IMG/VR virus record: IMGVR_UViG_2778261463_000013
Coordinates: 1-21,415 of that record
Origin: a virus
Lineage: Duplodnaviria; Heunggongvirae; Uroviricota; Caudoviricetes
Length of the DNA stretch: 21,415 nt
Direction: 5' to 3' (one strand)
This document shows, piece by piece, positions 1-17,780 of this stretch; position 1 is the first letter of the stretch, and every line of letters starts with the position of its first letter. The translations under genes and the position numbers were made by a program. Under the pieces are notes generated by a model. That model made no database searches. It worked only from the letters and a program-made list of their open reading frames with translations, and had not been told where the DNA came from.

Positions 1-99
1 ATGAGGCTGTTCCACAGAAACGATATTGAGATTGAACTGCATTTCTCCTCCGGTGAGGATAAGGTTAAATCATTGTTGATGAAAAAAACAAAGATTTAA
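1..99 (+). CDS. Short paralog (32 codons incl. stop) of the small ORF at 1171-1386; first ~72 nt are near-identical, then diverge. Starts at the window edge, so upstream context is unseen
   Basis: Bases 1-72 match 1171-1242 with few mismatches (MRLFHRNDIEIELHFSSGEDKVKS vs MRLFRRNDIEIELHFSSGEDKVKS); in-frame TAA at 97-99. Confidence 0.3.
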   Translation: MRLFHRNDIEIELHFSSGEDKVKSLLMKKTKI

Positions 100-167
100 T
101 TTATTGATATAAAGGATTTGTATCAGCGTATGTCCACGCAGTGACCACATTTTCGAGAGGTAGAGTA

Positions 168-196
168 AGCCCGCAACATTGCGGGCTTTGTCTTAT
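168..196 (+). terminator. Intrinsic terminator-like hairpin followed by a U-rich tract
   Basis: AGCCCGCAA/TTGCGGGCT inverted repeat at 168-187 followed by TTTGTCTTAT. Confidence 0.4.
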
Positions 197-238
197 AGTC
201 TGATCACTGTTTCAAGTCGGTGAGGACACCAAAAAGAA

Positions 239-272
239 AACCCGCAGTTTTTATGCTGCGGGTTTGTTTGTT
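239..272. terminator. Bidirectional intrinsic terminator-like hairpin
   Basis: 9-bp stem AACCCGCAG/CTGCGGGTT (239-247 / 256-264) with A-rich 5' flank and T-rich 3' flank. Confidence 0.45.
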
Positions 273-719
273 CATGTCTGTGAGATAGGGTGCCTTATCG
301 ACCTTACCCTGGCAACCGATTGACGGGGGATTGCTCCCCCGTCGCGGTTTCCTTACTTCTTACATTGTAAGAACGCCGCAAACTCCGCTCCCCAGAAGCT
401 CATCCGTATTTCGCACAGCGAACCGTGCAATATCCAGATGATGAGGATTGCCGTCACGCAGAACGTGATGGCCGTAAGCGATTTTTGCGACATAGCACTT
501 GCTCCTTTTCCGGAGAGGCGCTAACCTTTCACTTGTCAAGGTAATGCGGTTAGGGCCTCGGTTAAACAGAAATGTTTTCCGGGGCCTTTCCACATCCGGC
601 CTTCAGGTTTTCCCTCCGGCCATCAGCCGAAAGGCACCCGCGCGTAATTTAACTGTTTCTTTTTGTTGCGGCAATATTTCAGGTGTCAGTTGGGGTGGGC
701 TGTATCTTGTCTGATGCAT

Positions 720-752
720 AAAAAAATGCCCGCGCTTCGGCGGGCAAAAAAC
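720..752 (-). terminator. Repeated terminator module, copy 1 (minus-strand orientation: GC hairpin then U7)
   Basis: A7-T-GCCCGC-gcttcg-GCGGGC-A6; on the minus strand this reads hairpin followed by a T7 tract. Confidence 0.45.
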
Positions 753-919
753 AAGACTTTTCGTTTGTATATCATGGATAATGGACACCCTTCCTGTTGT
801 CAGGGGGAGGTACCCGTAGCTAATCTACTCACTTTGTGCCCGCAGCTCAACCCTGAAGTTTTCATGGAAAATCAGGGCTGCTTTGTGTGCGCCAGGGAAG
901 GCGCCTCGATGGCAGGCGC

Positions 920-953
920 AAAAAAAATGCCCGCTCTCCGGCGGGCAAAACAA
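920..953 (-). terminator. Repeated terminator module, copy 2
   Basis: A8-T-GCCCGC-tctccg-GCGGGC-AAAA; same stem as copies 1 and 3, different loop. Confidence 0.45.
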
Positions 954-981
954 TGATCTACGTCACATTATATTGATAACC

Positions 982-1005
982 GGGCATTCCTCCATGCCCA
1001 TTTTT
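982..1005 (+). terminator. Plus-strand terminator-like hairpin
   Basis: GGGCAT-tcctcc-ATGCCC followed by ATTTTTAATTT. Confidence 0.35.
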
Positions 1006-1170
1006 AATTTAGCCATTTTTCATTTTGTTCACAATATAGTTATCTATCATATTCATGAATGAAATTATAATTTCATCTATAGGTATAAATGATTTGTGTT
1101 AATATGTTTCTCCTGTCTAACTGTTTTCTCATTTTTCGATACTAGTATTTCTGATATATTCAGGGGGCGT

Positions 1171-1386
1171 ATGAGATTGTTCCGAAGAAACGATATTGAG
1201 ATTGAACTGCATTTCTCCTCCGGTGAGGATAAGGTTAAATCAATAAAGGTGAAACTAAGACATGCCCGGGATGTTCAGGCGTGTCAGTGTCTTATTGATG
1301 AACTCGTTGCTGCCGGAGGAACGCCAAAAAAACAAAAATATAATCTGCACGTGGTTCCTGATGACCCCATAACCACAAAAGAATAA
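1171..1386 (+). CDS. Small hypothetical protein (71 aa), moron-like: own AT-rich upstream region, bracketed by terminators
   Basis: ATG at 1171 preceded by AGGGGG SD-like sequence; AT-rich 1010-1170 upstream; stop TAA 1384-1386 runs directly into terminator copy 3; 5' end duplicated at 1-72. The track start at 1096 is a less likely upstream extension. Confidence 0.5.
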   Translation: MRLFRRNDIEIELHFSSGEDKVKSIKVKLRHARDVQACQCLIDELVAAGGTPKKQKYNLHVVPDDPITTKE

Positions 1387-1416
1387 AAAAATGCCCGCTT
1401 TCCGGCGGGCAAAAAA
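1385..1416 (-). terminator. Repeated terminator module, copy 3; probable terminator of the ogr transcript
   Basis: A7-T-GCCCGC-tttccg-GCGGGC-A6; lies ~110 bp downstream of ogr on the minus strand. Confidence 0.5.
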
Positions 1417-1528
1417 CAATTTAGGTCATATTTCATCATGGATAATTAAATACTTGCCCGTGGTTGCGGGAAAGTATCTGCCGTTAATCTACTTGCCTTA
1501 TGATGTCCTCTCAACCTGATTATTGTTC

Positions 1529-1780
1529 TTAAATATCAAGATTAATCTGAGTATTCCCCCTGTGAGATCCCGGAAAATCTTCCCACGGTATCCGCTCTGT
1601 ACCCTGCGGCGACGGGGCGCGTTTTGATGTGAATTTGTTAAAACCCTCCAGTGTGGTAAAGCCGATCCCGCATTCGAGGTTATTGCACTGGTAGTACTTC
1701 AGGCGAACTGTGCCTGAATCATTTTCATTGCGACTGGTGCGGATACGTGCGGATGCACCGCATAGGGGACAACGGAACAT
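1529..1780 (-). CDS. ogr: Ogr/Delta-family zinc-finger late-gene activator
   Basis: 83-aa ORF starting MFRCPLCG... with paired Cys motifs, resembling P2 Ogr as recalled; AAGGAG SD 6 nt upstream of the ATG; immediately downstream of D as in P2. Confidence 0.85.
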   Translation of the reverse strand: MFRCPLCGASARIRTSRNENDSGTVRLKYYQCNNLECGIGFTTLEGFNKFTSKRAPSPQGTERIPWEDFPGSHRGNTQINLDI

Positions 1781-1823
1781 GGCTTCTCCTTATCTGGCTG
1801 AGTGGAGATGGCTCATTTTAATT

Positions 1824-2915
1824 TTATCCGCCTGAATCTGCTATCCATTCGGGGATTTTCGCTTCCAGCTCCAGTTGTGTGGTGAAGCCGCTTTCATCTA
1901 TGATGTGCTCCACCCTGGCAATAATCCAGTCCTGATTGTCCACCTCGCTTTTAAAACCTGTTACCCTGCCGTGCATTTCGGGGTACAGGTCGGCACGACC
2001 CCGTGCCAGAGTGATGGAGAATGCCGCTGCTCCCCGCTGTAACTCCTGCCACTTTGCCGCAGCTGCACGTCGTGCGGTTTCTTCATTCTGGTAAGTCCTG
2101 CGCAGAACGTAGACGTTCCCTTCCGCGCCTTCCATGTAATCACCCTCCCGGCTGCTGCTCTTCTCCTGTTTCTGTTTCCCGGCTTCCCTGCGTCGCTTCA
2201 CGTTCACTTTTTTCTTTTGCCCGAACTTCAGATCGAGCCAGTGCGCCCGGACCCCCGTATACGCATCACGGTCAGCAATGCGAAAGCGGTGACTGTCGCC
2301 GCTGCTGCGGGTAATGGCGAACGAAGGCAGGGCTCTTCCGTCCGGCCCGGTTCCGCCACCCGGCAGAATGAATAACAGGCTGCCGTTTTTTACGGTGGCA
2401 ATCGCACCCAGCATTTCAGCCATGCGGGTCAGGAAGGATATATCGCTCTCTTCGGTCTGGTCAGCGTGGTCAATTTCGATATCCATGAGGATTTCGCTTA
2501 TCTGTGTCTTCAGGCCGTAGCGGTGAGCGATGGCTGACACAACCTGTTTTACGGTCACGTCGTGCCAGGATACCTCCCGCCTCACGTTGAACTCTTCCCG
2601 AAAATCTGCGCTGCTGGCGGTGATGATCAGTTTATCTGGAGGTCCTTCCCACGCAACCTCATCAACGACGTAGGTGCCCTTGTTAACCAGTGATTCTCCT
2701 CGCCAGCCAATCATCACTCTCAGGCGTGCGCCACGTGGTGGCAACTGTAACTGCCCGTCCGTATCGTCAAGGGTGAGGGTGACGCGGTCTGCCTCAAAGG
2801 CCCGGTTATCCGTCAGGGTCAGCGTCATGAGTCGCTCTGTGAGGTTTGCCAGTGTGTTGTTGTTGATGGTGATGTCGATATCCGGTGACGGAACGGTAAC
2901 TGACAGCTCTTTCAT
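1824..2915 (-). CDS. D: P2 gpD-like late control / tail protein D
   Basis: Track ORF 1824-2951; internal ATG at 2915 with AGGAGA SD gives 363 aa. Size and position directly upstream of ogr match P2 D; the start choice is inferred. Confidence 0.75.
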   Translation of the reverse strand: MKELSVTVPSPDIDITINNNTLANLTERLMTLTLTDNRAFEADRVTLTLDDTDGQLQLPPRGARLRVMIGWRGESLVNKGTYVVDEVAWEGPPDKLIITASSADFREEFNVRREVSWHDVTVKQVVSAIAHRYGLKTQISEILMDIEIDHADQTEESDISFLTRMAEMLGAIATVKNGSLLFILPGGGTGPDGRALPSFAITRSSGDSHRFRIADRDAYTGVRAHWLDLKFGQKKKVNVKRRREAGKQKQEKSSSREGDYMEGAEGNVYVLRRTYQNEETARRAAAAKWQELQRGAAAFSITLARGRADLYPEMHGRVTGFKSEVDNQDWIIARVEHIIDESGFTTQLELEAKIPEWIADSGG

Positions 2916-2979
2916 GGTGTTCTCTCCTGGTGCGTTCTGTAATGGTTTCATGCACCGCAGCGGCGTTGAATGGCTGTTT

Positions 2980-3003
2980 TGTTGTCGCTGTCAGGAGACA
3001 ACA
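2980..3003. promoter_or_regulatory. Ogr-type late-promoter dyad (TGT-N12-ACA within TGTTGTC-N10-GACAACA) in the D / FI' divergent intergenic region
   Basis: Perfect 7-bp inverted repeat arms read in the sequence; P2-family late promoters carry a TGT-N12-ACA activator site upstream of the -10 (established knowledge); ~75-85 bp upstream of the FI' ATG at 3077. Confidence 0.5.
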
Positions 3004-3076
3004 TCAAAGGGGTGAGATTACCGCGTGTGTGGGTAATGATTACGCAAAATCAACCAGCCAGACAAGGGTGAAACAT

Positions 3077-4132
3077 ATGAGTGAAACACGCTTTCATGGT
3101 GCGCGCGTAAGGGAAAGTACCGGCCTTGCCACCGCCATTAATGATGTGGATTCCAGTGTTATTGGTATTGTGGCTACGGCAGATGACGCGGATGAAACTC
3201 TGTTCCCGCTGAACAAACCCACACTGCTGACCCGCGTCAGTGATGTGCTGGGTAAGGCCGGCACAAAGGGGACGCTTTACAAATCGCTTAAGGCTGTCGC
3301 CGACCAGGTGAGCACGAAGGTGATTGTGGTGCGCGTTCCTGATGCCAGTTCTCAGGGCGCCCCGGATACAGGAGTTACATCATTCGGTCATCTGGATCCT
3401 GAAGACAGGGCATTTTTTGGTATTGATGAGTCTGAAGATGCACATCCTGTATACCCACACAAAACGCAGGACCAGTATGTCATTGGTGGCACGGATGGCG
3501 ACGGTAATTATACCGGTATGTATGCACTTCTGATAGCTGAACAGGATGATGCCATCGGTTACCGTCCGCGCATCATCGCAGCTCCCGGACTGGATACTGA
3601 AGCTGTCACAAAATCCCTGTGTGTAATTGCAGAAAAACTTCGCGCATTTGTCTACGCGGGCTGTCACAACTGCAAGAAGCCCGCTGATGCAATCAGCTAC
3701 CGCGCCAGATTTAACGAGCGCGAACTTATGCTGCTCTGGCCTGACTTCATCGCCTATAACCCGAAATCCGGCGCTAATGAGGTCTTCCCGGCTGCGGCGT
3801 ACGCCTGCGGTTTACGTGCACGTATTGACCACGAACAGGGCTGGCATAAATCGCTGTCCAACGTGCCGGTAACAAATGTGCTGGGTATTTCCAGCCCGGT
3901 GTTCTGGTCCCTTCAGTCCGAAGACAGCGATGCCAACAATCTCAACAACAAGGAAATCACTACCATCATTTGCCGTAACGGTTTCCGCTTCTGGGGCAAC
4001 CGTACGCCGGAAACGAAGGCGTATATCTTTGAGGTGTACACGCGAACCGCTCAGGTGCTGGCTGATTCCATTGCGGAAGCGCAGTTTGAAACGATTGATG
4101 CCCCGCTGACCCCTGCTAATGTGAAAGACGTG
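3077..4132 (+). pseudogene. FI: Tail sheath protein (P2 gpFI-like), 3'-truncated; reading frame runs on into antisense M sequence
   Basis: ATG at 3077 with AAGGGTG SD; product MSETRFHGARV...GWHKSLSNVPV...RNGFRFWGNRT...YTRTAQVLAD resembles P2 FI as recalled; similarity is lost at ~4125-4135, exactly where convergent M ends; the rest of the 442-aa track ORF (to 4258) is not sheath-like. Confidence 0.7.
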
Positions 4133-4909
4133 TTAACCACGTTTCGCCTTCGCTTTCGCCTTCGGCGTCGTGGTCTGTTCTCTGGTTGTATCTTTCTGTG
4201 CCGCAGGCTCCTGTGCGGCAGCGGCTTCATCCTGTCCGGCCTTTTTCAGGGCCCGTGAAAGCGTGGCAATCTCACGTTTTACCCCCGCATTCGGGTTAAG
4301 GTGCATTGCCTCACGGAACAGCTTCAGACTCACCGCCATGCTGTCGGCATCGGTCAGGCCACGACGGGCAAAGGCGCATGCCTTGCACAGCTTGGCGCGG
4401 ACCTCATCGGGCATGTCCCGGTTCGCGACAATTTGCCAGAGGGTGTCCAGCGGTTCGATGTAGCCGGACAAATCGGCGTGTGCATCCGTTCCGGCCTGTG
4501 TCAGAACAGGGTTGCAGATTTCCTCGGTCAGTACCGTGGCTGCCGTACGCCCGAAGTTGTCAGGCATCGTGAGGTTGTGGCGAACCACATAATCCCCGAT
4601 GCGCAGTGCAAGCGCCAGGTCGCCACAGTCCACGGCCCACACCATGAGTGTGGCTATCACCTCATCCTGCTGTCCGCCGTCGGCTTCCAGCGTGCCGTCT
4701 ATCCAGCCTGCAAAACCCGGCAGCATTTCACGCTTGAGCGCGGCCTTTGCCGCTTTTGCCTGGACGCCCTTTATGCGTTGCTGTGCCAGGCGCAGACGGT
4801 GAAGGACCTGCTCATGAGCCGTGCGGGCCACGATATCCTCGTTTTCTGCTGCCGTTCCTGCCCGTAAAGCCATCACGTGCTGGAAATGAGCCTGTGCCGG
4901 TGTCAGCAT
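4133..4909 (-). CDS. M: Terminase small (endonuclease) subunit, P2 gpM-like
   Basis: 258-aa ORF with ...MPDEVRAKL... region resembling P2 M as recalled; directly downstream of N with a 2-bp gap. Confidence 0.8.
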   Translation of the reverse strand: MLTPAQAHFQHVMALRAGTAAENEDIVARTAHEQVLHRLRLAQQRIKGVQAKAAKAALKREMLPGFAGWIDGTLEADGGQQDEVIATLMVWAVDCGDLALALRIGDYVVRHNLTMPDNFGRTAATVLTEEICNPVLTQAGTDAHADLSGYIEPLDTLWQIVANRDMPDEVRAKLCKACAFARRGLTDADSMAVSLKLFREAMHLNPNAGVKREIATLSRALKKAGQDEAAAAQEPAAQKDTTREQTTTPKAKAKAKRG

Positions 4910-4911
4910 GG

Positions 4912-6051
4912 TTAATCCTCCTCTTCCCCTGCATCCTTGTCTTCAGCCTGCGCTGACAGTGCTTTTATGTCCTCCCGGTACCAGTCCGGCGCGTCATGGT
5001 CATATGTGGCAAAGCTGATATTCTCAATCAGTGCGCACTTACCATGGTCCTCAACCACATAGCAGTCGTTAACGGACTGATAGATGGCGATACGGTTGTA
5101 TTCGGGCTCATCCTTCATGAGACGACGCATGGACCCCTTCTGCCAGTAAACCGACAGGTTGCTGAATGAGGTGATGAGCATTGACTGAGCCGGGAAAAAT
5201 GGCGCAAGGTACACATCAAGGCCGCCAATGGTCCGCGTTGACACAATGAGCTGTCCGGCAAGCAGTTCGGCATTCGCATTCTGCATGCTGATACTGTTCA
5301 GGACCGGCAGGCGCAGGGAGTTAAAGAGGTTTCGCCCCATGATGACAACGAGGTCGTCTGCGTCCTTGTGCCATTCGTCAAGCAGGGATGAGCGTGCATC
5401 CTGGACCAGTGCATCGGGATTGGCGTATCTGCCTGTGTATGCCACCGAATTGTCCATATTGCGCGCAGTCAGCATCACGTCTTTCATGACGCGTTGCGGG
5501 GCCTGGTCCCTGATATCCTGCAGCCACCCCTTATTGACGTCCTCAAGTCGCGGGTGTTTTTTTATATCCGAGACTTCCGCATGGTGCGTACCGTTAAAAC
5601 CTGTCATGATGCGATCAAGTGCCACCTGTCTGGCAATCTGGCGACTCACACGCAGCTGGAAGTCAGGGTGTCCGGCCCACATGTCAAGCTGAGGGTAGGA
5701 GATGAAGGTGTCGTAGTTCACCTGCTCGCACTCATAGCGTCGCGCTTTCATGTCCACCACATTCAGCGGGTTACGACGATTTGTACCGTCATAACTGCTG
5801 TTCGTGCGCGCAACCGGCCCGGTGGTGTCCAGGAGTACCTTTTCACCTTTCTGCTCTGTCACACCAATGCTGTTGGCTTTCTGAAGAAAATCATGGCTTT
5901 CCTTTGATGCGTTTTCAAATCTCTGCTGCACTGCCGGCTGTACCGAAAAGCGGGAGGAGAGCGCAGATATTGTGATGTTATTCATCTCCGCCTGTTGTGC
6001 CTGGTAAGCAAAAAGCTCGGCCCGCGCGGCATCGCTCATGATCAGATTCAT
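4912..6051 (-). CDS. N: Major capsid protein, P2 gpN-like
   Basis: 379-aa ORF; motifs such as ...VLLDTTGPVA..., ...YECEQVNYD..., ...MTGFNG..., ...DYVVEDHG... resemble P2 N as recalled; AAGAGGTGA SD upstream of the ATG at 6051. Confidence 0.9.
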   Translation of the reverse strand: MNLIMSDAARAELFAYQAQQAEMNNITISALSSRFSVQPAVQQRFENASKESHDFLQKANSIGVTEQKGEKVLLDTTGPVARTNSSYDGTNRRNPLNVVDMKARRYECEQVNYDTFISYPQLDMWAGHPDFQLRVSRQIARQVALDRIMTGFNGTHHAEVSDIKKHPRLEDVNKGWLQDIRDQAPQRVMKDVMLTARNMDNSVAYTGRYANPDALVQDARSSLLDEWHKDADDLVVIMGRNLFNSLRLPVLNSISMQNANAELLAGQLIVSTRTIGGLDVYLAPFFPAQSMLITSFSNLSVYWQKGSMRRLMKDEPEYNRIAIYQSVNDCYVVEDHGKCALIENISFATYDHDAPDWYREDIKALSAQAEDKDAGEEED

Positions 6052-6079
6052 CGGTTATCACCTCTTGTGGTTATTTCTG

Positions 6080-6916
6080 TCAGTAGTCAGCCAGTTGTCT
6101 GGACTGCCCGCCGGTTGCCGTAAAACGACTTTCCTGATCAGCGTCCAGTCCGCGCAGTCTGTTTTTCAGCTCTGCCAGCTCAGTGGACAGGGTGGCGATT
6201 TTCTGTCTGTCTGCCTGATGGCGCGATTCCAGTGCACTGAAGCGGTCGAGAAGGTCGGCATGCGATGAGGCTATCCCCTCAACGGCGTCATGAATGCGGG
6301 AGAACCGGGTGTCGTCAGCCCTGCGTCCTCGCCCAATCATGTTCATCACGCGGTTAAGCCACTGCGCACCTTCCTCGCTGCGGCGCTCCGTCAGTTCGAT
6401 CACTTCAGCCTCAATGGCGTCAGAGAACATCGGTGCTTCCGTCTGCTGATTATTGAAGGTCATGACCGAACGGCGCTGCTGCAGGGCGAACTGAAGACGC
6501 TCCGTGCCGATGCTTGCCGGGGTGTCTGTCATGGCAAGGCCAATAAGATACGGGGTGCCCGTAGGGGTGAAATTTCGTGCCAGCTCAATACTGGAGTAAA
6601 TTTTCTTACCCCGGGAGACCAGATTTTTCATGCGGTCGGTGGGTTCGATTTCCGCATACAGCGCAGTACGACCGACCAGCGGACCTTCGGTGATTTCTTC
6701 TGTGCTCAGTGCCGTCACATCACCCATGGCGGAAAATTCACTGGACGGAACCGGTGAAAGCCAGTGCTCCACGTTCACGCGTGCGCCGTAAATCTCAGGG
6801 TTGAAGTTACTGGCCGCCGCGCGCAAATCTGCGGCACTGATTTCGCGACCGTCTGCGGTGGGACCGGAAACGGCCACGCGGAATGTTTTACGGGATGTTT
6901 TTTTCTGTTCAGGCAT
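6080..6916 (-). CDS. O: Capsid scaffolding protein, P2 gpO-like
   Basis: Internal ATG at 6916 (MPEQKKTSRKTFRVAVSGPTADGREISAADL...) with GAGGG SD; matches the P2 O N-terminus pattern (FRIGVEGDTCDGRVISAQDI...) as recalled; the track's upstream extension to 7057 is unlikely. Confidence 0.85.
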   Translation of the reverse strand: MPEQKKTSRKTFRVAVSGPTADGREISAADLRAAASNFNPEIYGARVNVEHWLSPVPSSEFSAMGDVTALSTEEITEGPLVGRTALYAEIEPTDRMKNLVSRGKKIYSSIELARNFTPTGTPYLIGLAMTDTPASIGTERLQFALQQRRSVMTFNNQQTEAPMFSDAIEAEVIELTERRSEEGAQWLNRVMNMIGRGRRADDTRFSRIHDAVEGIASSHADLLDRFSALESRHQADRQKIATLSTELAELKNRLRGLDADQESRFTATGGQSRQLADY

Positions 6917-6984
6917 TGTCGGGCCCTCGTGATGATCGTTTGTCTCATGATGGCAAAACGGGGCAGGGACAGACAAAGTGCGTT

Positions 6985-7008
6985 TGTTGTAAGCGAATGC
7001 CGACAACA
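6985..7008. promoter_or_regulatory. Ogr-type late-promoter dyad (TGTTGT-N12-ACAACA) in the O / P divergent intergenic region
   Basis: Perfect 6-bp inverted repeat arms with 12-bp spacer read in sequence; placed ~65-85 bp from the P start (7071) and the O start (6916). Confidence 0.5.
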
Positions 7009-7070
7009 CCGGGCATGGCAGGAGGCCTGTAAGGGGTGAGTAAACTGCCTGAATCACATGAGGGGGAGAA

Positions 7071-8822
7071 ATGATTCAGGATACATTTGTTCGCCAGCGG
7101 GCACGCCAGCTGTACTGGCAGGGTTACCCTGTTGCGGAAATTTCCCGCCTTATGGGTATCAACCAGAACACGATCCATTCGTGGAAAAAACGCGACCAGT
7201 GGGATGAGACGCCCCCGGTTCAGCGTGTCACGCAGTCCATGGATGCGCGACTCATTCAGCTCACGGAAAAACAGAATAAAACAGGCGGGGACTTTAAGGA
7301 AATTGATTTGCTGACCCGTCAGCTTAAAAAGCTGCATGACGGTCTGCCGGATGAGACGGCAACAGGAAAGAAAGGCCGGGCGAAAAAACGCAAAAATCAT
7401 TTCACGCCGGAACAGATCGCGGCGCTGCGGGAAAAAATTACCGACAGGCTGGCCGGACACCAGCGCAAATGGCTTGATGCTATCGGTGCCTGTGAGCGTG
7501 CCGGAATTACTGACAGGATGATCCTGAAATCCCGCCAGATTGGGGCGACCTGGTATTTTGCGCAGGAAGCGCTGCTGATGGCGCTGCGTAACGATGTGGC
7601 ACAACCTTACCAGCGTAACCAGATTTTTTTGTCTGCGTCTCGTCGTCAGGCGCTCCAGTTTAAAAGCATTATTCAGAAGGCTGCATCTGAAGTTGATGTG
7701 GAACTGAAAGGGGGCGATAAAGTCATCCTCTCCAACGGTGCAGAGCTGCATTTTCTCGGCACTTCTGCGGCCACCGCGCAAGCGTACACAGGGAATCTGT
7801 ATTTTGATGAGTTTTTCTGGACGGGGCGTTTCGCAGAGCTGCGCAAGGTGGCTGCTGCTATGGCAACGCTGGATGGTTTGCGGTGTACCTATTTTTCCAC
7901 GCCATCAAGTGAAACACATGAGGCGTATGCATACTGGAACGGCGATCACTGGAATGAAGGGCTTCGTACTCATAAACGTCAGCATTTTGATGTGAGCTGG
8001 AATGCGCTTCATAACGGCCTTATCTGTCCTGACTATATCTGGCGGCAAATTGTGACGCTGGAAGATGTGGTCAGTCAGGGATGGACGTTAACCAACATTG
8101 ACAAAATCCGGCGCAATAACACTGAAGACGAGTTCCGCAATCTCTACATGTGTGAATTTGCTCGCGAAGGGGAATCGGCATTTAACCTGAATATCCTGAT
8201 TGGCTGCGGTGTTGACGGATACGACGAGTGGCCGGACTGGAAGCCGTTTGCACCGCGTCCGATGGGGAACCGCCCTGTGTGGATTGGGTACGACGCCAAC
8301 GGCAGTAGCGGGAACGGTGACAGCGGGGCGGTTGTCGTGGTGGTGCCGCCAGCCGTACCGGGCGGGCGTTTTCGCACCGTGGAGACGCGGCGGGTGCAGG
8401 GGCTGGAGTTTGAGGCGCAGGCGAAGGTGATTGAAGAGTTCACCTTTCGCTATAACGTTGAGCATATCGGTATTGACGTAACCGGCGGTCACGGGGATGC
8501 GGTGTATCAGATTGTGAAGCGCTTTTTTCCGGCAGCCATTCCCTACACCTTCACCCTGTCATCAAAGCGCACGCTGGTTCTGAAGATGCTGCAGCTCATG
8601 CGCGCCGGGCGGTGGGAGTACGACCGCAGCGAGCGCGAACTGGTGAGCGCCTTTAACGCGGTACGCAAAACAAAAACGCAGGCCGGATTTATCACCTACG
8701 AAACAGATCGCGCAAGAGGCGTAAGCCATGGCGATCTTGCATGGGCCACCATGCTGGCCGTTATCAACGAACCTGTCGGCGGTGAACATGATGCCGCCCC
8801 CTTCAGTGTTACGGAGTTCTGA
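7071..8822 (+). CDS. P: Terminase large (ATPase) subunit, P2 gpP-like
   Basis: 583-aa ORF, GGGGGAG SD; stop overlaps the Q start (TGATG at 8820-8824); size and synteny as in P2 P-Q. Confidence 0.9.
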   Translation: MIQDTFVRQRARQLYWQGYPVAEISRLMGINQNTIHSWKKRDQWDETPPVQRVTQSMDARLIQLTEKQNKTGGDFKEIDLLTRQLKKLHDGLPDETATGKKGRAKKRKNHFTPEQIAALREKITDRLAGHQRKWLDAIGACERAGITDRMILKSRQIGATWYFAQEALLMALRNDVAQPYQRNQIFLSASRRQALQFKSIIQKAASEVDVELKGGDKVILSNGAELHFLGTSAATAQAYTGNLYFDEFFWTGRFAELRKVAAAMATLDGLRCTYFSTPSSETHEAYAYWNGDHWNEGLRTHKRQHFDVSWNALHNGLICPDYIWRQIVTLEDVVSQGWTLTNIDKIRRNNTEDEFRNLYMCEFAREGESAFNLNILIGCGVDGYDEWPDWKPFAPRPMGNRPVWIGYDANGSSGNGDSGAVVVVVPPAVPGGRFRTVETRRVQGLEFEAQAKVIEEFTFRYNVEHIGIDVTGGHGDAVYQIVKRFFPAAIPYTFTLSSKRTLVLKMLQLMRAGRWEYDRSERELVSAFNAVRKTKTQAGFITYETDRARGVSHGDLAWATMLAVINEPVGGEHDAAPFSVTEF

Positions 8823-9877
8823 TGAGCAGAAAAAATAAACAACGACGTACGAACGCCCGCGCAGCGCAGGGCAGCCTTGCGGATTCCCTGCGAAGCGACC
8901 CGACACTAAGTGCCTTCACGTTTGAAGGACCTTACCGGCTGTCAGGGGCCGACCTGCTGGACAGCATGTACTGCGCCGACAACGGGCGGTGGTTTGAAAC
9001 GCCCGTTGACTGGTACGGACTGGCACGGGCTGCCCGCCAGACGTCCTGGCACCAGTCGGCGCTCAGCTTCAAACGTAATGTGCTGCTGGGCTGCTATATT
9101 CCACATCCTCTGCTGTCCCGCCAGGAGTTCGCCGGGGTGGCGATGGACTGGTTTGTGTTCGGTAATGCCTGTCTTGAGCTGCGGCGCAACATGCTTGGCG
9201 AACCGCTGGCCCTGCGCCGGGCGCTGGCGAAATACATGCGACGTGGCAGCGATATGAAATCATGGTGGTATATACAGGAAGGACAGGAAGAGTACCGCTT
9301 TCGTGAGGGGACGATATGCCACCTGATGAATCCTGATATCAACCAGGAGATTTACGGGATGCCGGATTACCTGGGCGGCCTGCTGTCTGCCAGCCTGTCA
9401 CATTCCGCCGATATCTTCCGCAAGCTCTACTACGATAACGGCTCACACGCGGGCTGTATTGTCTACATCGGTGCGGCGCAGGTTGACCGTGAAAGCATGG
9501 AAAAACTGCGGGAAACACTGCAAAGCGCGCGTGGTGGCGGGGCGTTTAAAAATCTGCTCATCCACGCGGCGGGAGGTGGTAAGGATGGCGTACAGATTTT
9601 GCCGTTTCAGCAAATCACCGCAAAGGATGAGTTCATGAACGTCAAGGCTGCATCGCGTGATGATGTGCTGTCCGTGCACCGTGTACCGCCGCAGCTGATG
9701 GGGGCCATGCCGGGTGAGAAGGGGTCATTCGGGGATGTGGAGAAGGCAGCCCGTGTGTTTGCCATTAACGAACTGATGCCCGTCATGGAAGCAATGAAAC
9801 ACGTCAACGACTGGCTGGGCGAAGAGGTGATCCGTTTTAACCCTTACGCACTGTTAGACACCCAGCCCATATCCTGA
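8822..9877 (+). CDS. Q: Portal protein, P2 gpQ-like
   Basis: 351-aa ORF translationally coupled to P; size and synteny match P2 Q. Confidence 0.9.
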   Translation: MSRKNKQRRTNARAAQGSLADSLRSDPTLSAFTFEGPYRLSGADLLDSMYCADNGRWFETPVDWYGLARAARQTSWHQSALSFKRNVLLGCYIPHPLLSRQEFAGVAMDWFVFGNACLELRRNMLGEPLALRRALAKYMRRGSDMKSWWYIQEGQEEYRFREGTICHLMNPDINQEIYGMPDYLGGLLSASLSHSADIFRKLYYDNGSHAGCIVYIGAAQVDRESMEKLRETLQSARGGGAFKNLLIHAAGGGKDGVQILPFQQITAKDEFMNVKAASRDDVLSVHRVPPQLMGAMPGEKGSFGDVEKAARVFAINELMPVMEAMKHVNDWLGEEVIRFNPYALLDTQPIS

Positions 9878-9903
9878 CGCGCTTCGCTTGTCTGCTGCTT
9901 CGC

Positions 9904-9928
9904 CGGGGCATAAAAAATTTATGCCCCG
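9904..9928. other. Perfect palindrome CGGGGCATAAA-AAA-TTTATGCCCCG between convergent Q and the hotspot gene; no flanking U tract
   Basis: 11-bp arms, 3-nt centre, read directly; sits where a P2-family cos region would be expected (downstream of Q). Confidence 0.4.
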
Positions 9929-9943
9929 ACTCTCCAGCTCTGC

Positions 9944-10654
9944 TTAACGAAGTGCTGATGGCGCTCGCTTTTTCAGGTGATTAGCGATGTGCTTTTTCAT
10001 GTGCATAACAACATCGCCCCAGGCTTCTTCGCTGGGTTTATTGATAAATACGCGAACAGAAATATCGTCTTCCACCCGGACTCTCAGAGACACCCGTTCC
10101 GCATCTACTGAATATAATTCAAGTGCAATAACCACGCTTACCGGGTAGCTGCTGTCAGATGACTTAACCCAGGTTCGCACGGCCATGCGGAAAATATTGT
10201 CTGGTGCAGATGCGATATTGTGGACTGAAAGAGGACTAAAATCCGCCGCTGTCTTACATGGCAAGCCTGTCTCCACGTAGCGGTGCAGGTCGCCATCATC
10301 GTCTTCCCAGTACATGGATGGAAGCCCCAGCCATTCTTCATAGAAATCAATCAGCCTTGCCGCTTCATCCCGCAAAATTTGAGCTGCCTCAGCGCGTTTT
10401 TCTTCAGCTTCACGATTGATCTGGCATAAATCATTAAAGTGGCTCATGACATTATCCTCTTTTGAGTTGATGCCTGCCGCTATTCTGACTTTGCCCGGGT
10501 TCTCCTGCAAGCTGGTTATTCCTTCAGATAATTTCACAACATCTCCAACCTTGTAGCCATCATCGCCGGGCGGATGCTTACGCAACCCCGCAACTCTGAC
10601 GACATATTCTCGCTGCCTCAGTGCGATTTTGACGGCCTTATCTTTCACCCCCAT
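9944..10654 (-). CDS. Hypothetical protein (~236 aa from ATG 10654; alternative 167-aa product from internal ATG 10447), stand-alone unit in the Q-A accessory hotspot
   Basis: Long minus-strand ORF; ATG at 10654 has no clear SD, while internal ATG at 10447 is preceded by a strong AAGAGGA SD with 7-nt spacing; N-terminal ~70 aa have an AbrB/looped-hinge-like residue pattern (weak impression); no recognised homolog. Confidence 0.5.
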   Translation of the reverse strand: MGVKDKAVKIALRQREYVVRVAGLRKHPPGDDGYKVGDVVKLSEGITSLQENPGKVRIAAGINSKEDNVMSHFNDLCQINREAEEKRAEAAQILRDEAARLIDFYEEWLGLPSMYWEDDDGDLHRYVETGLPCKTAADFSPLSVHNIASAPDNIFRMAVRTWVKSSDSSYPVSVVIALELYSVDAERVSLRVRVEDDISVRVFINKPSEEAWGDVVMHMKKHIANHLKKRAPSALR

Positions 10655-10707
10655 CAAATCAAGCTTTTACGTCTTTTTTACGCTCAGCGTGAGAAATACA
10701 GCCATTC

Positions 10708-10725
10708 TGTTGTGTCGCTGCAACA
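10708..10725. promoter_or_regulatory. Dyad TGTTG-N8-CAACA (satisfies TGT-N12-ACA) resembling the late-promoter element at 2980-3003 but with a shorter spacer
   Basis: Shares TGTTGT..TCGCTG..CAACATC with the D/FI' dyad; function and orientation not established. Confidence 0.3.
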
Positions 10726-10872
10726 TCGTTCAGGGAATGCTATTTACCCCCTGAAACGCGGGCTGTTCCCCCGTCACCTGCGCGCAGAAAAAGGCCTTTT
10801 TTCGTGCACGCACGGATCCCCGACGGATCCAGACGCCACACGGGCCGGAAGGGCAAAAAGTCGTTCAAAAAA

Positions 10873-10902
10873 ATTGTGCAAATTTGTGCACTATTGTGCA
10901 TT
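10873..10902. repeat. Three direct repeats of (A/T)TTGTGCA at exact 10-bp phasing
   Basis: aTTGTGCAaa tTTGTGCAct aTTGTGCAtt read directly; helical phasing suggests an operator or protein-binding array. Confidence 0.45.
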
Positions 10903-10907
10903 GAAAT

Positions 10908-10935
10908 AAACGCCCTGGAGGAGGGCGTTTTGCTC
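10908..10935. terminator. Bidirectional intrinsic terminator after the A-linked operon
   Basis: 9-bp GC-rich stem AAACGCCCT/AGGGCGTTT with GGAGG loop, T-rich on both flanks; immediately downstream of the stop at 10938-10940. Confidence 0.6.
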
Positions 10936-10937
10936 AT

Positions 10938-11339
10938 CTATTTATAGCCTTGCCCCTTACTGGCCAGCGCCCTGATGGCAGGGCGTGCCAACACCATATT
11001 TTGGCAATGATGAATTGCCCGGCAAAATTCATCTCTACCCATTGGATGCTCAACTGGCAATGTAAAATACAGGTTCCATGCATCGCCTAAAAGTTGGGCT
11101 ATCTTTTGTTCTTCAGATGTCAGCAAGCGGTACTCCCCATCCTTGATGTAGTCACTTGTGCCATCGACCTGCTGTTCTGCAATGTGGAAAGCACCTATTG
11201 GTTTTGCTTCCAGCGATGCCAAAGCAATCCGTGCCAGTTTTTCCGCTTCTTCGGCTGGCAGTACAACGTTGCTACCAGGTCCGTATGTTTCGCGCCACTG
11301 CCTGATTGTCAGTAGTCGCTCTTTGGTTATAGTGGTCAT
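10938..11339 (-). CDS. Hypothetical protein (133 aa), last gene of the A-linked coupled string
   Basis: ATG overlaps the upstream stop (ATGA at 11336-11339); followed by a terminator. Confidence 0.55.
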   Translation of the reverse strand: MTTITKERLLTIRQWRETYGPGSNVVLPAEEAEKLARIALASLEAKPIGAFHIAEQQVDGTSDYIKDGEYRLLTSEEQKIAQLLGDAWNLYFTLPVEHPMGRDEFCRAIHHCQNMVLARPAIRALASKGQGYK

Positions 11340-11545
11340 TTGTTAATCCTCAAAACTTTATGCCCGGGCGCAAAAGCACGAGTTTTGTCTTTGCTTATTC
11401 GCCAGCCATCCTTACGCGCCTCTTTTGCACAGCCAGTCCATGACGTACCGATATATTCACCGAAGTCTGGCGTTTGATATTTACCATTTGTACACTGGCG
11501 ACAATCACAATAGAGATGCATGGTGTAACTTGCGGCAATAGCCAT
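11336..11545 (-). CDS. Hypothetical small Cys-rich (zinc-ribbon-like) protein, 69 aa
   Basis: AAGGAG SD 6-7 nt upstream of the ATG at 11545; YCDCRQC...GC Cys pattern. Confidence 0.55.
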   Translation of the reverse strand: MAIAASYTMHLYCDCRQCTNGKYQTPDFGEYIGTSWTGCAKEARKDGWRISKDKTRAFAPGHKVLRINK

Positions 11546-11546
11546 A

Positions 11547-11861
11547 TCAGTCTCCTTTGATGCCAGTGTTTACAACCTGACAAGCCTCTTTGAGCACCCA
11601 GTCAACAGCGTCTTGCCATGCTCCGGTTTCGACTGGCGGATTCTCACGCTTTACCAGTTCATAGAAACGTACTGCTCTAACCAGTCCATCTGACGGTTTT
11701 GCCTGTAGTGCAGCCTGAGCTATGCGGTATACCTGGAGCATACAGGCGTCGTTGATATCCATTCCGAATGGAATATCTGATGACTGAGATTCCACATCTT
11801 CCAGCCTGGCAATTTCTTTACGTAAGAAGCCTTTCAGTTCCTGCTTCTGTTTCCTGTTCAT
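11547..11861 (-). CDS. Hypothetical protein (104 aa)
   Basis: ATG at 11861 preceded by GAAGGA SD; the track start at 11876 is TTG; 1-nt gap to the next gene. Confidence 0.5.
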   Translation of the reverse strand: MNRKQKQELKGFLRKEIARLEDVESQSSDIPFGMDINDACMLQVYRIAQAALQAKPSDGLVRAVRFYELVKRENPPVETGAWQDAVDWVLKEACQVVNTGIKGD

Positions 11862-11872
11862 ATATTTTTCCT

Positions 11873-12067
11873 TCAAAGTTCGGTTCGCTGACAGGGTTTC
11901 TCTTTACGGCAGACAATGACGCTTCCTTTGCTCGAGTCGGTGATTGTTACCGTGCCGTCATCACACTGGACAATGACAACGGTGTTGCTCTTTTTCGCTA
12001 CGCAGTTCGGCGTGGCTGATTGTGCGAATGGCGCGAAAAACAGCAGAAAAAGTAATATTCTGCTCAC
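11873..12067 (-). CDS. Hypothetical small secreted protein (64 aa): predicted Sec signal peptide plus ~43-aa mature part with 4 Cys
   Basis: GTG at 12067 preceded by GGGAGGA SD (8-nt spacing) and overlapping the upstream stop (GTGA); N-terminus SRILLFLLFFAPFAQSA is signal-peptide-like; the track's ATG at 12244 would overlap the upstream gene out of frame. Confidence 0.4.
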   Translation of the reverse strand: MSRILLFLLFFAPFAQSATPNCVAKKSNTVVIVQCDDGTVTITDSSKGSVIVCRKEKPCQRTEL

Positions 12068-12495
12068 TGTTGTTTCCTCCCGTTCTGTGCTGGTCTGGCG
12101 AATGAATTGCGTTGTGGTGAAAAGACCATTCGCGCCAGCGCGGCCTTGTGATTGACTGTGTTCAGTGTTCTGGCCAGTCCGCCGTTGTGCCTGCGTGTCC
12201 GCTCTTCGTGATATCTCTGCATGATTTTCCCGGCAGGCGTGCACGGCTCCGGTTCCTCCGGCGAACGGCGCGGACGAATGACGACAGTCCAGCTATGGCT
12301 CTCGCTGCCCGGCCGCCTGTTGAGTATGTCGGCGATGGTGGTCTCCGTGGTGCGATCGGGGCTGACTATCGTGATTTCCAGCTCGTCGCCCGGTTGTGGC
12401 CTTGTGGCAGGCCTGAACAGTGTCAGCACCGGCATACGCTGGCGCATGATGGCCTCAAACTGTGGGCGCTGCATGGTGCAGCAAAATCGCGTCAT
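12064..12495 (-). CDS. Hypothetical protein (143 aa), translationally coupled to A
   Basis: ATG overlaps the A stop codon (ATGA at 12492-12495); Pro/Arg-rich; no recognised homolog. Confidence 0.45.
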   Translation of the reverse strand: MTRFCCTMQRPQFEAIMRQRMPVLTLFRPATRPQPGDELEITIVSPDRTTETTIADILNRRPGSESHSWTVVIRPRRSPEEPEPCTPAGKIMQRYHEERTRRHNGGLARTLNTVNHKAALARMVFSPQRNSFARPAQNGRKQQ

Positions 12496-15002
12496 GCTCC
12501 CGCCTCCACTGGCTGCTCTGTGATGATGTGACGGGCTGACTCATCCCAGTACGCTGTTCCCCCGTTATCCAGACGCACACGGGCACCGTTACGCACGGAG
12601 ATGATGGCCGCGTCAGGCAACTGCACACCCAGCGCATCAAGTTCGCGGGCGATTTGCGTGTCCGTCGCGGTATCCGCAGGCACGACAATCCCCACCCTTA
12701 CAGGGGTGTCAGATGCCGGTGTGGTGTCGTTTTGTCCGGTTTTTGCGCCCGACGGCTGATTTTTAATCTGATTACGCAGTTTTCTCCGATCGCCCCTGCT
12801 TAACGTATTCAGCCAGCTTTCCAGGTTCTCTTCGGGAAGCGTCAGTCGTCCGGGGTCCTGCCTGTTTTCTGGTCCGTGATTGTCTGTTTTTTCATCCCGG
12901 GGACAGTTATTGCCACGAGTCCAAGGGGCGACGGGGTCGCCCTGAAGGTCAAAACCCTCGCCCGTGCGGTTGTCTGGTGTTGTTTCTTTTTTAACCAGTT
13001 TCCACTCGTCCGGATGGGTGCATATGGTGTACCGCTCTCCGAGCGACGGGGCGCAGATTCCGTAGATACGTTGAGGGAATTCACCGTAGTCGTTGGCTTC
13101 GTCTGCGGTTTCGTATGCGGTGCGGACCAGATACTGGTTGCGCGGAATGAGCACACCACCCTGTTTCATGATGTAGGTGGCAAAACATCCCACATCTGCG
13201 GCAGCCATAATGGCGTCAATATCGTCATGATCGAGGTGCTTCGGTGATGCCGGGTTGCGCTCCATCTGGCTTGCAAGGCGGCGGAGTTCACGCCATACCT
13301 GGCGGGGCGGAATGCCGAAAAACTGGAACTGACGGATGCGGTGAAGGCTTGCCCAGGCAATGGCGTTCTCCACGGTTTCCGCCATGGTTTTCCCGGATTC
13401 CTCATCAACGTAAGGTTTTCCGGTTTTCGGATCATTGTTGTGGAAAGCGCTGGCGTCCAGGTTCTTACCGATATAGGTTGCGATATAGCTTGCCGGTGTG
13501 CCTTTTTCCGGGTCTATCTTCTCGCATTTAAAGCGCGGTGAAATATCGTCCCCCAGTTCGTGGCGATCTGATTTAATTGCTGCTTCGCGCATAATTTCGA
13601 TGATGCGCTCTGCGTTCTCCGGGGAAGTGAATACCAGCATATGCCAGTGTGGCGTGCCGTCATGGTGTGGCTCAGCGGTTCGCACGCCGTACCAGCCCAG
13701 CCCCTCTTTTTTTATTTTTTTTCTTACGGCTGCGAAGAAGTCGTAAACCAGATAATCACTGGCATCTCGTACTGTGGCACCGTTGTATTTCGGGTTCAGG
13801 CTGCCGTTCTCGTTCACGCTGTGAAAGCGGGAAGGGGTGGTTACTGTGATGAAGAATGCGACGTCAGCCCGTAATTCGGCCACCATCTCCATCCCTCTGA
13901 CGCAGACCATCATTTCATTGCGGCGGTTGCGTGGATTACCCAGGCCAGCCCAGTACACGTCCTCCAGACTCAGGCGCTCGCCGTCTTCGTTTTCAATATC
14001 CCAGCTTTTGAGAAAGTCACGGGTGCGCTGGCGCTTCTCGCGGAACTCCAGTAGTGACTCATGGCTGATATAGGGGGATTGTTTACGTGACACTCTGCCG
14101 GCGGCGCGCAGTAACTCCTCCCGCCAGAGATCGGCGACGTGGCGTAACTGGTTGTTCCACCAGGTCGCGCAGGTGATGCGCAGTACCGCACCCGGAACCC
14201 GTTCAGGGTCCGGCGGTGTGCGTCGGTTGTGCCTGATTTCGAGTTCCGGCCAGTATGGCGGGACCACGCCCAGAATTAAGGCTGTGCGTGCCACCTTCTG
14301 GTAGGCCAGCAGCCAGATAACCGGGCTGTCATTATCCTTGCCTGTCCGTTCAAGAACTTCATCACATATGCGTTCAAATTCTGCGGCGAATGCCTGGGCT
14401 GTCAGTGTGGCGATGCGCTGGATTTCGTCACGGGTGAGTTGCGGCAGTGTGAGCAGTTCTTCAAGGCGATGGCGCACGACGGTGGTTTTGAATGCCGGCG
14501 TTGCAAAGCGGTCGTTAACCCTTTCAATACGTTTCAGGCGCGCACGCAGTCCACGGCGAACGAAATTATCGGCCACGTATGCGCTGTTGTTTTTTACACC
14601 TTCACTGCGGGCACTTTGCTGTTTCCGGTTCAGTCGTGCCAGATCACGGATCAACACACTGGCAAGAAACGAGGGCAGGGTGCGAAGTTCGGCTATCGCC
14701 TCCGATACCGCCGTTGGCGGATTTTCGCGTCTGTGTCGTGCCAGCTTATCCAGCCTTATCTGCCGCTCTTCGTCCCGGTGAAGGTGTGAATTAATTTGCT
14801 TACCTTTGTCCGTGGTTGTCAGGAAGGCCACGGTTTCTTCATCCAGCCGGGCCTCAGTGCGAATGTCTTCGGTGAGGTAGTCACGGATTGCCCGTTGTAA
14901 TGCGGTTGGCTTCTGCGGTAATGCTCTGCCGAATGTCTCAGGATCAATAACCGGCAGCGGGGCGTTCCACGGGTACGCCAGGTGCGTGTGGTGATGGCTC
15001 AT
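12492..15002 (-). CDS. A: Replication initiation endonuclease (rolling-circle HUH family), P2 gpA-like
   Basis: 836-aa ORF; HUH motif region ...HHDGTPHWHMLVF...; GGGGAG SD 8 nt upstream of the ATG at 15002. Confidence 0.9.
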   Translation of the reverse strand: MSHHHTHLAYPWNAPLPVIDPETFGRALPQKPTALQRAIRDYLTEDIRTEARLDEETVAFLTTTDKGKQINSHLHRDEERQIRLDKLARHRRENPPTAVSEAIAELRTLPSFLASVLIRDLARLNRKQQSARSEGVKNNSAYVADNFVRRGLRARLKRIERVNDRFATPAFKTTVVRHRLEELLTLPQLTRDEIQRIATLTAQAFAAEFERICDEVLERTGKDNDSPVIWLLAYQKVARTALILGVVPPYWPELEIRHNRRTPPDPERVPGAVLRITCATWWNNQLRHVADLWREELLRAAGRVSRKQSPYISHESLLEFREKRQRTRDFLKSWDIENEDGERLSLEDVYWAGLGNPRNRRNEMMVCVRGMEMVAELRADVAFFITVTTPSRFHSVNENGSLNPKYNGATVRDASDYLVYDFFAAVRKKIKKEGLGWYGVRTAEPHHDGTPHWHMLVFTSPENAERIIEIMREAAIKSDRHELGDDISPRFKCEKIDPEKGTPASYIATYIGKNLDASAFHNNDPKTGKPYVDEESGKTMAETVENAIAWASLHRIRQFQFFGIPPRQVWRELRRLASQMERNPASPKHLDHDDIDAIMAAADVGCFATYIMKQGGVLIPRNQYLVRTAYETADEANDYGEFPQRIYGICAPSLGERYTICTHPDEWKLVKKETTPDNRTGEGFDLQGDPVAPWTRGNNCPRDEKTDNHGPENRQDPGRLTLPEENLESWLNTLSRGDRRKLRNQIKNQPSGAKTGQNDTTPASDTPVRVGIVVPADTATDTQIARELDALGVQLPDAAIISVRNGARVRLDNGGTAYWDESARHIITEQPVEAGA

Positions 15003-15007
15003 TCCGC

Positions 15008-15421
15008 TTACTCCCCTGCTGTTGCCTTCTCAAATGCAGCCCGGTACAGCACAAGAAGGCGCTGGTATTCAGCGATAAAGTCTTCTGCTGTTTTAATCCC
15101 TTTCACGACCACGCTGTGGGTGGTCATTTCCAGAACGAGCACCATTTCTGACGATGACCAGCTGATAACGCTGCTGTCGCACCCGTTGATGTGGAACAGG
15201 CCCAGCACCATGCTGTGGTTCTGGTCTCTGACATCCACGCGGTAACGGTCATCAACGGTGAAGGAAAAATTCCCGTATGTGGTGGCGCTGCTGGCGGCCT
15301 GTTTACAGGCGCGGCGGTAATAGTCATGCAGGTCATTGAGACGGGAAGCGAGGCGTGGATCCACCGCCCACATCCAGTTAAAAAAATCCTGAATATCTGA
15401 AAGTCCCTTAACGCTCTTCAT
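15008..15421 (-). CDS. Hypothetical early-region protein (137 aa) immediately upstream of A
   Basis: GGAGG SD 6 nt upstream of the ATG at 15421; position equivalent to P2 orf80-83. Confidence 0.6.
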   Translation of the reverse strand: MKSVKGLSDIQDFFNWMWAVDPRLASRLNDLHDYYRRACKQAASSATTYGNFSFTVDDRYRVDVRDQNHSMVLGLFHINGCDSSVISWSSSEMVLVLEMTTHSVVVKGIKTAEDFIAEYQRLLVLYRAAFEKATAGE

Positions 15422-15489
15422 GAGAACCTCCGGAAACGGACGTGCGGAAGCCTCCCGCGTACGGGGGCGGGATGGCTCCGGGATGTTGA

Positions 15490-15717: not shown

Positions 15718-15724
15718 GGTGTTT

Positions 15725-15960: not shown

Positions 15961-16040
15961 GTTTTATGAGGTGCAGCGGAAATGTAACCTGACTGATTGC
16001 GGCATGGCAAGCGGTTTTTTTGTGTGTGCATAGTGGTTAC

Positions 16041-17770: not shown

Positions 17771-17780
17771 GGTGTGGCCC

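Follow-up and report, generated by a model that had tools for sequence, protein, structure and literature searches.

A tail-less P88-like prophage of Escherichia coli probably derived from an intact relative by one microhomology-mediated deletion

Introduction

In bacteriophage P2 (NC_001895), the genes FI-FII-E-T-U-D-ogr are located on the same strand as the O...G genes. A different arrangement is found in phage P88 (Xuanwuvirus P88, Peduoviridae; NC_026014), where the FI-FII-E-T-U block is inverted relative to P2 and D and hok lie beyond it. P88 is a viable, plaque-forming phage that can be induced with mitomycin C (PMC5285337). The late promoters of P2 carry TGT-N12-ACA-type activator sites, and the P2 record assigns one site jointly to the divergent promoters pO and pP and another to pF.

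Decay of a P2-family prophage by deletion is exemplified by the P2 remnant of E. coli K-12, a cryptic prophage that keeps ogrK and a fragment of gpD. Capsid-forming satellites (cf-PICIs), which possess their own head and packaging genes and no tail genes, are evolved lineages with helper-sensing and redirecting functions.

Here we describe a P2-family, P88/Xuanwuvirus-like prophage of E. coli that is located between serS and dmsA and is represented by a 21,415-nt stretch of DNA, analysed at its full length and termed the window. A preliminary description of this DNA assumed an ancestor with the P2 gene order and called for at least one inversion, in the sheath region, and two deletions.

Results

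Gene content of the window

The window carries a P2-type head and packaging set (Table 1) consisting of capsid N, scaffold/protease O, terminase P and M, and portal Q, as identified by the Pfam matches Phage_cap_P2 (1.5e-115), Phage_GPO, Terminase_5/6N/6C, Phage_term_smal and Phage_portal. The N-O-P-Q module (4912-9877) is intact, and the early region beyond Q encodes a gpA of the rolling-circle type, Cox, the C repressor and an integrase of the tyrosine type. Further markers of the Peduoviridae are accordingly present (Ogr_Delta, Phage_GPA, Phage_Cox, HTH_3, and Int_N with Phage_integrase). The window thus has homologues of Q, P, O, N, M, D, ogr, A, cox, C and int of P2. At the DNA level, its identity to phages of the P2 type is low or not detectable.

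D is the sole complete tail gene that remains. It starts with an ATG that is the reverse complement of 2913-2915, so that 2916 is the first intergenic base. As the preliminary description stated, L and the tail and lysis module are missing: L, X, holin, lysozyme, spanins, R, S, V, W, J, I, H, G, U, T, E, E′ and FII are absent, and a search of the rest of the 21,415-nt window, which is colinear with the early/head half of an intact prophage, revealed no L, no lysis gene and no other tail gene.

Table 1. Features of the window, with positions counted from its first nucleotide
Feature	Position	Strand	Basis
ogr, ogr/delta-type late-gene activator, intact	1529-1780	-	Pfam Ogr_Delta E=4.9e-14; annotated in LH50-c as ogr/Delta-like zinc finger protein
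D (gpD tail/baseplate hub), intact	1824-2915	-	Pfam Phage_GPD; equals LH50-c CDS L002 35484-36575
GTTGT-N12-ACAAC dyad	2981-3002	.	Exact match
FI, 5′ 83% (codons 1-353 of 427)	3077-4136	+	Pfam Phage_sheath_1, Gp18_domIII_N
Deletion junction, GTTAA microhomology	4132-4136	.	Breakpoint alignment
Tail of the FI′ ORF, 40 codons + stop, antisense to M 3′ end	4137-4258	+	Translation
M (gpM small terminase subunit), intact	4133-4909	-	Pfam Phage_term_smal; no difference from LH50-c gpM
N	4912-6051	-	Pfam; colinear with LH50-c
O	6080-6916	-	Pfam; colinear with LH50-c
P	7071-8822	+	Pfam; colinear with LH50-c
Q	8822-9877	+	Pfam; colinear with LH50-c
gpA replication endonuclease (early region)	12492-15002		Phage_GPA
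Second deletion junction (636 bp), integrase codon 260 joined to dmsA nucleotide 127	21179-21180	.	

Two E. coli draft assemblies together account for the window at 100% identity, with GCA_002468825.1 matching 1-14258 and GCA_002485525.1 matching 10399-21415. A near-identical prophage resides between dmsA and serS in many E. coli chromosomes. Close relatives were drawn from these chromosomes; a megablast search of 1400-6200 against phage records gave only ~79% matches to M.

Native gene order of close relatives

The most informative relative is the prophage of E. coli LH50-c (locus L002; NZ_CP100500.1, about 3,473,290-3,508,400), which shares with the window its dmsA-serS insertion site, its genes and the orientation of every block. 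According to its annotation, int, C, cox, ..., A, ..., Q and P are encoded on one strand, while the opposite strand encodes O, N, M, L, X, the lysis genes, R, S, V, W, J, I, H and G. The order then returns to the first strand for U, T, E′, E, FII and FI, and beyond this block lie D, ogr and hok. A PGAP pseudogene flag on the tape-measure gene raised the possibility that this prophage is itself already defective, which was rejected. The tape-measure ORF is open (1115 aa), and the LH50-c parent therefore looks complete.

The orientation of FI-FII-E-T-U opposite to both D-ogr and O...G is common to four records, namely the prophages of E. coli LH50-c, GF4 and B771, which are at least 99% identical to the window, and phage P88, with the inverted block situated between G and D. 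Every intact relative has D and FI in divergent orientation, and FI-U is natively convergent with O...G. The window retains the divergent D/FI pair of this Xuanwuvirus (P88-like) order. P88 itself has the same module order as the window and differs in being a complete phage with parM/partition genes and an invertible tail-fibre segment; its DNA identity to the window is only ~78-80%, over 33-45% of the window (megablast). In ICTV practice, the genus level applied to Xuanwuvirus corresponds to ~70% nucleotide similarity over full length.

A 13,714-bp deletion between GTTAA repeats

Alignment with LH50-c, a complete relative of the kind that the preliminary description had proposed for defining the breakpoints, resolved the window into three blocks that are colinear with this prophage, all in a single orientation. 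Window positions 1-4136 correspond to L002 38398-34263 with one mismatch (at 3344), positions 4132-21180 correspond to L002 20553-3505 with four mismatches, and positions 21179-21415 correspond to L002 2870-2634. The segment lost between the first two blocks is L002 20554-34267, or 13,714 bp, which LH50-c keeps from L to the 3′ end of FI. It holds 19 annotated CDS (L, X, holin-like, lysozyme, Rz-like, lysC, R, S, V, W, J, I, H, G, U, T, E′, E and FII) in addition to the last 74 codons of FI.

The sequence GTTAA is present at both intact breakpoints and as a single copy at the window junction. The FI-side breakpoint in the intact prophage reads ...GAAAGACGT GTTAA GCGCAATTCG..., the M-side breakpoint reads ...GGGGTCAGCC GTTAA CCACGTTTCG..., and the window reads ...GAAAGACGT GTTAA CCACGTTTCG.... 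DNA identity to intact FI stops at 4136, whereas identity on the M side starts at 4132. The M stop codon (4133-4135) lies inside this microhomology and M is unchanged, so that the sheath match ends where convergent M stops, just as had been noticed from the sequence. By calculation, ~0.5% of random joins would be expected to show 5 bp or more of identity at the junction. A short junctional repeat is the usual signature of short-homology illegitimate recombination.

Because both flanks are 99.98-100% identical to one intact prophage and have the same orientation, a single deletion can account for the junction. We consider it highly probable, judging from these sequence comparisons, that the window represents a defective (cryptic) P2-family prophage with the P88/Xuanwuvirus order and that one microhomology-mediated deletion explains the whole arrangement. 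GTTAA in FI would have been joined to the GTTAA overlapping the M stop codon in one RecA-independent event, probably by replication slippage or end joining at the 5-bp repeat. The truncated gene (FI′) runs head-on into M because FI-U is natively convergent with O-N-M-L...G. That the endpoint falls at the M stop and leaves M intact may be fortuitous, or it might point to selection for keeping the head module intact. Given its remaining genes, the remnant is predicted to be unable to make tails, to make complete heads (as L is missing) or to lyse its host.

Distribution and diversification of the junction

NCBI and Logan assemblies of different runs contain 17 contigs that encode an identical 393-aa FI′ fusion. 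Two further carriers in which the junction 25-mer is present were found via a gpA look-up, namely L018 (GCA_048149345.1) and L021 (GCA_053151435.1, a 5.3-Mb contig), and the junction is therefore present in at least 19 public contigs. This support consists of draft or Logan assemblies plus the one 5.3-Mb contig. The junction is absent from the 5,426 complete E. coli genomes in RefSeq, and the exact junction 33-mer has no match among 2.9 million IMG/VR viral contigs or among JGI metagenome contigs. Because no viral or metagenome contig matches, there is no sign that the deleted genome is packaged into virus particles.

Position 7590 is A in all junction carriers scored (12/12) and G in every intact prophage examined. 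Likewise, position 18234 is T in both carriers that cover it and C in intact prophages. These linked SNPs support one origin of the junction. Carriers have since split into sub-lineages marked by 5943A or 9864G, and individual copies have acquired a nonsense mutation at 7536 that splits P (L011) or a frameshift at 10648 (L008).

L021 is a mosaic. Its M-N-O tract (4878-6358) matches the intact prophage L022, with the L022-like sequence ending between 6358 and 6675, and its positions 10548-10717 match another carrier (L005). A strictly clonal history fails because this genome combines the junction with an L022-like tract.

Alternative histories

The preliminary description was correct that the sheath gene is truncated and that, starting at 3077 on the plus strand, it diverges from D. 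The claim that the gene is inverted does not hold, since intact relatives natively have FI in this orientation; the apparent inversion arose because P2 was used as the reference order. Measured against P2 itself, FI does lie on the strand opposite D and M, and this is what favours a P2-order ancestor that underwent an inversion and two deletions. However, the FI-U block is already inverted in all close relatives, viable P88 among them, a single breakpoint pair is flanked on both sides by near-perfect identity to LH50-c, and the DNA of P2-type phages is barely recognizable in the window. One 13,714-bp deletion suffices relative to the LH50-c/P88 order, and the multistep history is extremely unlikely. 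Another reading holds that the tail and lysis module is truly present and that a collapsed or chimeric contig has produced the FI-M join. The window does come from draft assemblies, and none of the complete RefSeq genomes has the junction. Against this reading stand the recovery of the same junction in different projects and by different assemblers, once within a 5.3-Mb contig, and the existence of carriers with linked SNPs that have diversified since the deletion. Furthermore, only 5 bp are common to the two sides of the join, far below any assembler k-mer. An overlap of 5 bp is too short to mislead an assembler. An assembly artefact is effectively excluded. The junction might also be real and recurrent, with a site-preferring mechanism using the same GTTAA pair independently in different prophage alleles. 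L021 lends some weight to this idea, as it couples the junction to a capsid-region allele otherwise found in intact L022 and has a 6-bp indel 24 nt from the junction. In contrast, L021 carries the deletion-linked 7590A and 18234T, its FI side is identical to that of other carriers, its mosaic tracts are in part common to carrier L005, and the indel, which L022 lacks, sits in a hexamer repeat. B771, checked for an FI allele paired with the L022-type capsid allele, lacks that allele. The L022 contig does not reach the FI side, so the linked SNPs have to decide between recombination and recurrence for L021. This genome is most simply read as the result of recombination after a single deletion, and a second identical deletion is less likely; recurrence as a general explanation is highly improbable.

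An alternative of another kind concerns function rather than history, and holds that the remnant has been exapted. It might be a helper-dependent tail-less element to which a P2-family helper would supply L, tails and lysis; by analogy with capsid-forming satellites, its replication, head and packaging genes would then be kept for mobilisation. Or it might be a defence decoy, in which an Ogr-inducible FI′ (353 aa plus the 40-aa tail) would be switched on by superinfecting P2-family phages and would poison their tail assembly. Consistent with such a role, the ORFs of A, Q, P, O, N, M, ogr and D are all open, the deletion stops exactly at the M stop codon, FI′ keeps a putative activator site and ribosome-binding site, and the element has been maintained in several strains, where it has also diversified. 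Yet only five SNPs separate the window from an intact phage, which points to a very recent derivative rather than an evolved satellite, and inactivating mutations have appeared in P and in another ORF among the carriers. Moreover, L is needed for head completion and is missing, the window copy is predicted to lack Int activity and has lost its att site, and the junction is absent from the viral and metagenome collections surveyed. The Pfam tables of the window list no satellite-specific genes. Although it resembles cf-PICIs in having head and packaging genes of its own and no other complete tail gene than D, the element is a one-step deletion derivative without L and without a working integrase. 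It does not qualify as a phage satellite in the sense of an independent, conserved and packaged lineage with helper-exploiting genes, and we judge exaptation very unlikely.

The truncated sheath and its expression signals

The ORF that begins at ATG 3077 is sheath-like on profile search, as the preliminary description had supposed (Phage_sheath_1, E=1e-19; Gp18_domIII_N, E=3e-10). It specifies 393 aa (3077-4258) and is identical to the 427-aa intact sheath at 351 of 360 positions, the match ending at residue 353. The sheath residues are followed by TTFRLRFRLRRRGLFSGCIFLCRRLLCGSGFILSGLFQGP, which is read antisense to M and ends at the stop codon 4256-4258. The C-terminal domain Phage_sheath_1C, which spans residues 314-408 of the intact 427-aa allele, is not detected in the fusion by Pfam. 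FI′ thus has an incomplete sheath domain set, and most of the sheath C-terminal domain is lost. In contractile sheaths, the C-terminal region joins in the strand exchange that links subunits. Because of this linking role, normal polymerisation of FI′ is not expected.

The D-FI spacer and ribosome-binding site match those of the intact LH50-c prophage, and the late-promoter dyad is preserved exactly, in agreement with the earlier claim that these signals are intact. Only two exact GTTGT-N12-ACAAC sites are present in the window, one in the D-FI spacer and the other between O and P (6986-7007). Both are also found in intact LH50-c, and each is located midway between divergent late genes. The shorter motif TGT-N12-ACA is not above chance (6 found versus 5.1 expected), and it is the extended exact dyad together with its position that is informative; the chance figure given by the search tool refers to matches with up to one mismatch. 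By analogy with the single site that serves pO and pP in P2, the 2981-3002 dyad is probably an Ogr-type activator site common to the divergent D and FI late promoters. A sigma-70 promoter scan of 2800-4400 returned nothing, which is expected for activator-dependent late promoters and is uninformative.

With ogr and these signals intact, the suggestion that a truncated sheath could still be made is reasonable on sequence grounds. Ogr-activated late transcription would yield a truncated sheath of 393 aa, the last 40 of them a nonsense tail, and this product would be expected to be unable to polymerise normally. No terminator-like site was seen between FI′ and M, and transcripts from pF and pO would therefore be expected to collide. 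The complete 393-aa product corresponds to RefSeq entry WP_374222657.1, where the fusion is labelled as an ordinary tail sheath protein; this constitutes an annotation problem.

A second, younger deletion at the integrase and dmsA genes

Relative to LH50-c, 636 bp are also missing at 21179-21180. Integrase and dmsA are fused out of frame with a 2-bp overlap, which is not more than expected by chance. The integrase has lost its last 71 residues, including positions 125-168 of the Pfam integrase profile, the part with catalytic residues. The deletion also took the attachment region along with the promoter and first 42 codons of dmsA, and it thereby knocks out DMSO reductase subunit A as well. 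In LH50-c, by contrast, the 3′ end of int, att and the 5′ end of dmsA are all retained.

The possibility that this junction was artificial or made by an assembler was rejected, as it is present in both an NCBI assembly and an independent Logan assembly. The lesion was found only in GCA_002485525.1 and SRR5185883, both of which have 16392G. L018 and L021 carry the FI-M junction with int and dmsA intact, which places the 636-bp deletion later, as a nested event within the tail-less lineage. It is independent of the FI-M deletion. Capacity for excision has been lost from the window copy and not from L018 and L021, and in the window's sub-lineage the loss of integrase and att probably fixes the remnant in the chromosome.

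Discussion

P2 is the wrong reference for this lineage, and the choice of a P88-type relative turns a seemingly complex rearrangement into one microhomology deletion. The element is a young, decaying P88-like prophage, and the process is already known and common. As in the K-12 P2 remnant, deletion has eroded a P2-family prophage, and ogr, D and truncated neighbours stay behind, locked into the host chromosome. Unlike that remnant, the present element is much younger and larger (~21 kb), most of its genes are intact, and its parent can still be found in circulation at near 100% identity. The locus thus provides a dated example of prophage decay, in which the tail/lysis deletion came first and was followed by point inactivations and the nested integrase/dmsA deletion.

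The same prophage has also decayed independently elsewhere. In GF4, a fragment of W is joined to P, and in a further locus (L019) the same prophage is joined to lambda-like tail genes.

Additional deletion joining the integrase gene to dmsA

A second deletion is present in the window. Relative to intact relatives, 636 bp are missing at positions 21179-21180 (context 20399-21415), where nucleotide 127 of dmsA is joined out of frame to codon 260 of the integrase gene. Specifically, the deletion removes the catalytic C-terminus of Int, the att region, and the promoter and leader of dmsA. It is carried only by GCA_002485525.1 and SRR5185883, and is nested inside the tail-less lineage, whose members share the junction between the sheath gene FI and the small terminase gene M. 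The same dmsA-serS prophage has also decayed independently in other strains.

Candidate control elements of the late and early regions

Exact GTTGT-N12-ACAAC dyads occur only twice in the window, each located midway between the two members of a divergent late-gene pair (2981-3002 for D/FI and 6986-7007 for O/P). This placement suggests that a single putative activator site could serve both directions at each pair. When as many as one mismatch was allowed, no further copy of the dyad was found within the tail/lysis segment of E. coli LH50-c that corresponds to the junction deletion.

In the early region, two Rfam matches are flanked by replication genes on one side and the immunity region on the other. 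These matches suggest a predicted RNA-based regulatory or immunity element that resembles P1/P7-type systems.

Rfam matches in the early region of the window
Feature	Position	Strand	Score
C4 antisense RNA	15776-15863	-	79 bits, above gathering score
isrK	15899-15974	-	62 bits, above gathering score

Allelic variation and decay among related prophages

The junction carrier L021 (GCA_053151435.1) has a capsid-region allele tract (window-equivalent 4878-6358) in common with the intact prophage L022, which is evidence that resident prophage alleles have recombined. The same carrier has a 6-bp insertion within a hexamer repeat at window-equivalent 4160, 24 nt from the junction, that yields an M of 260 aa and a fusion of 395 aa.

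In E. coli GF4, gpA is broken and a W fragment directly abuts P. The prophage of the relative GCA_900482235.1 is truncated near window 10187, where it is joined to lambda-like tail genes. Among other junction carriers, a nonsense mutation at window 7536 interrupts P in L011, and the reading frame is shifted at window 10648 in L008.

Annotation of tail genes and a repeated Hok/Gef-type region

The fusion of truncated sheath and antisense M (window 3077-4258) exactly matches RefSeq WP_374222657.1, whose name, 'phage tail sheath subtilisin-like domain-containing protein', gives no hint of truncation. The sheath gene also contains a variable insert (window 3343-3478) of 93 bp (31 aa) versus the 396-aa allele of GF4, and alignments of several genomes to the window are broken within this gene at 3342.

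The tape-measure gene of LH50-c (L002 29646-32993) is a continuous ORF of 1115 aa despite being labelled an incomplete pseudogene by PGAP, as also in GF4 and the relative B771; approximately 1.1 kb is left without annotation there in all three.

The Hok/Gef-type region (window 1-1420) comprises about three diverged copies (~80-82%) of a ~0.5-0.7 kb module. Within it, an 84-nt small-ORF start is repeated (1-84 versus 1171-1254, 89%), and three copies of a terminator motif with a GC hairpin lie at 718, 919 and 1383.
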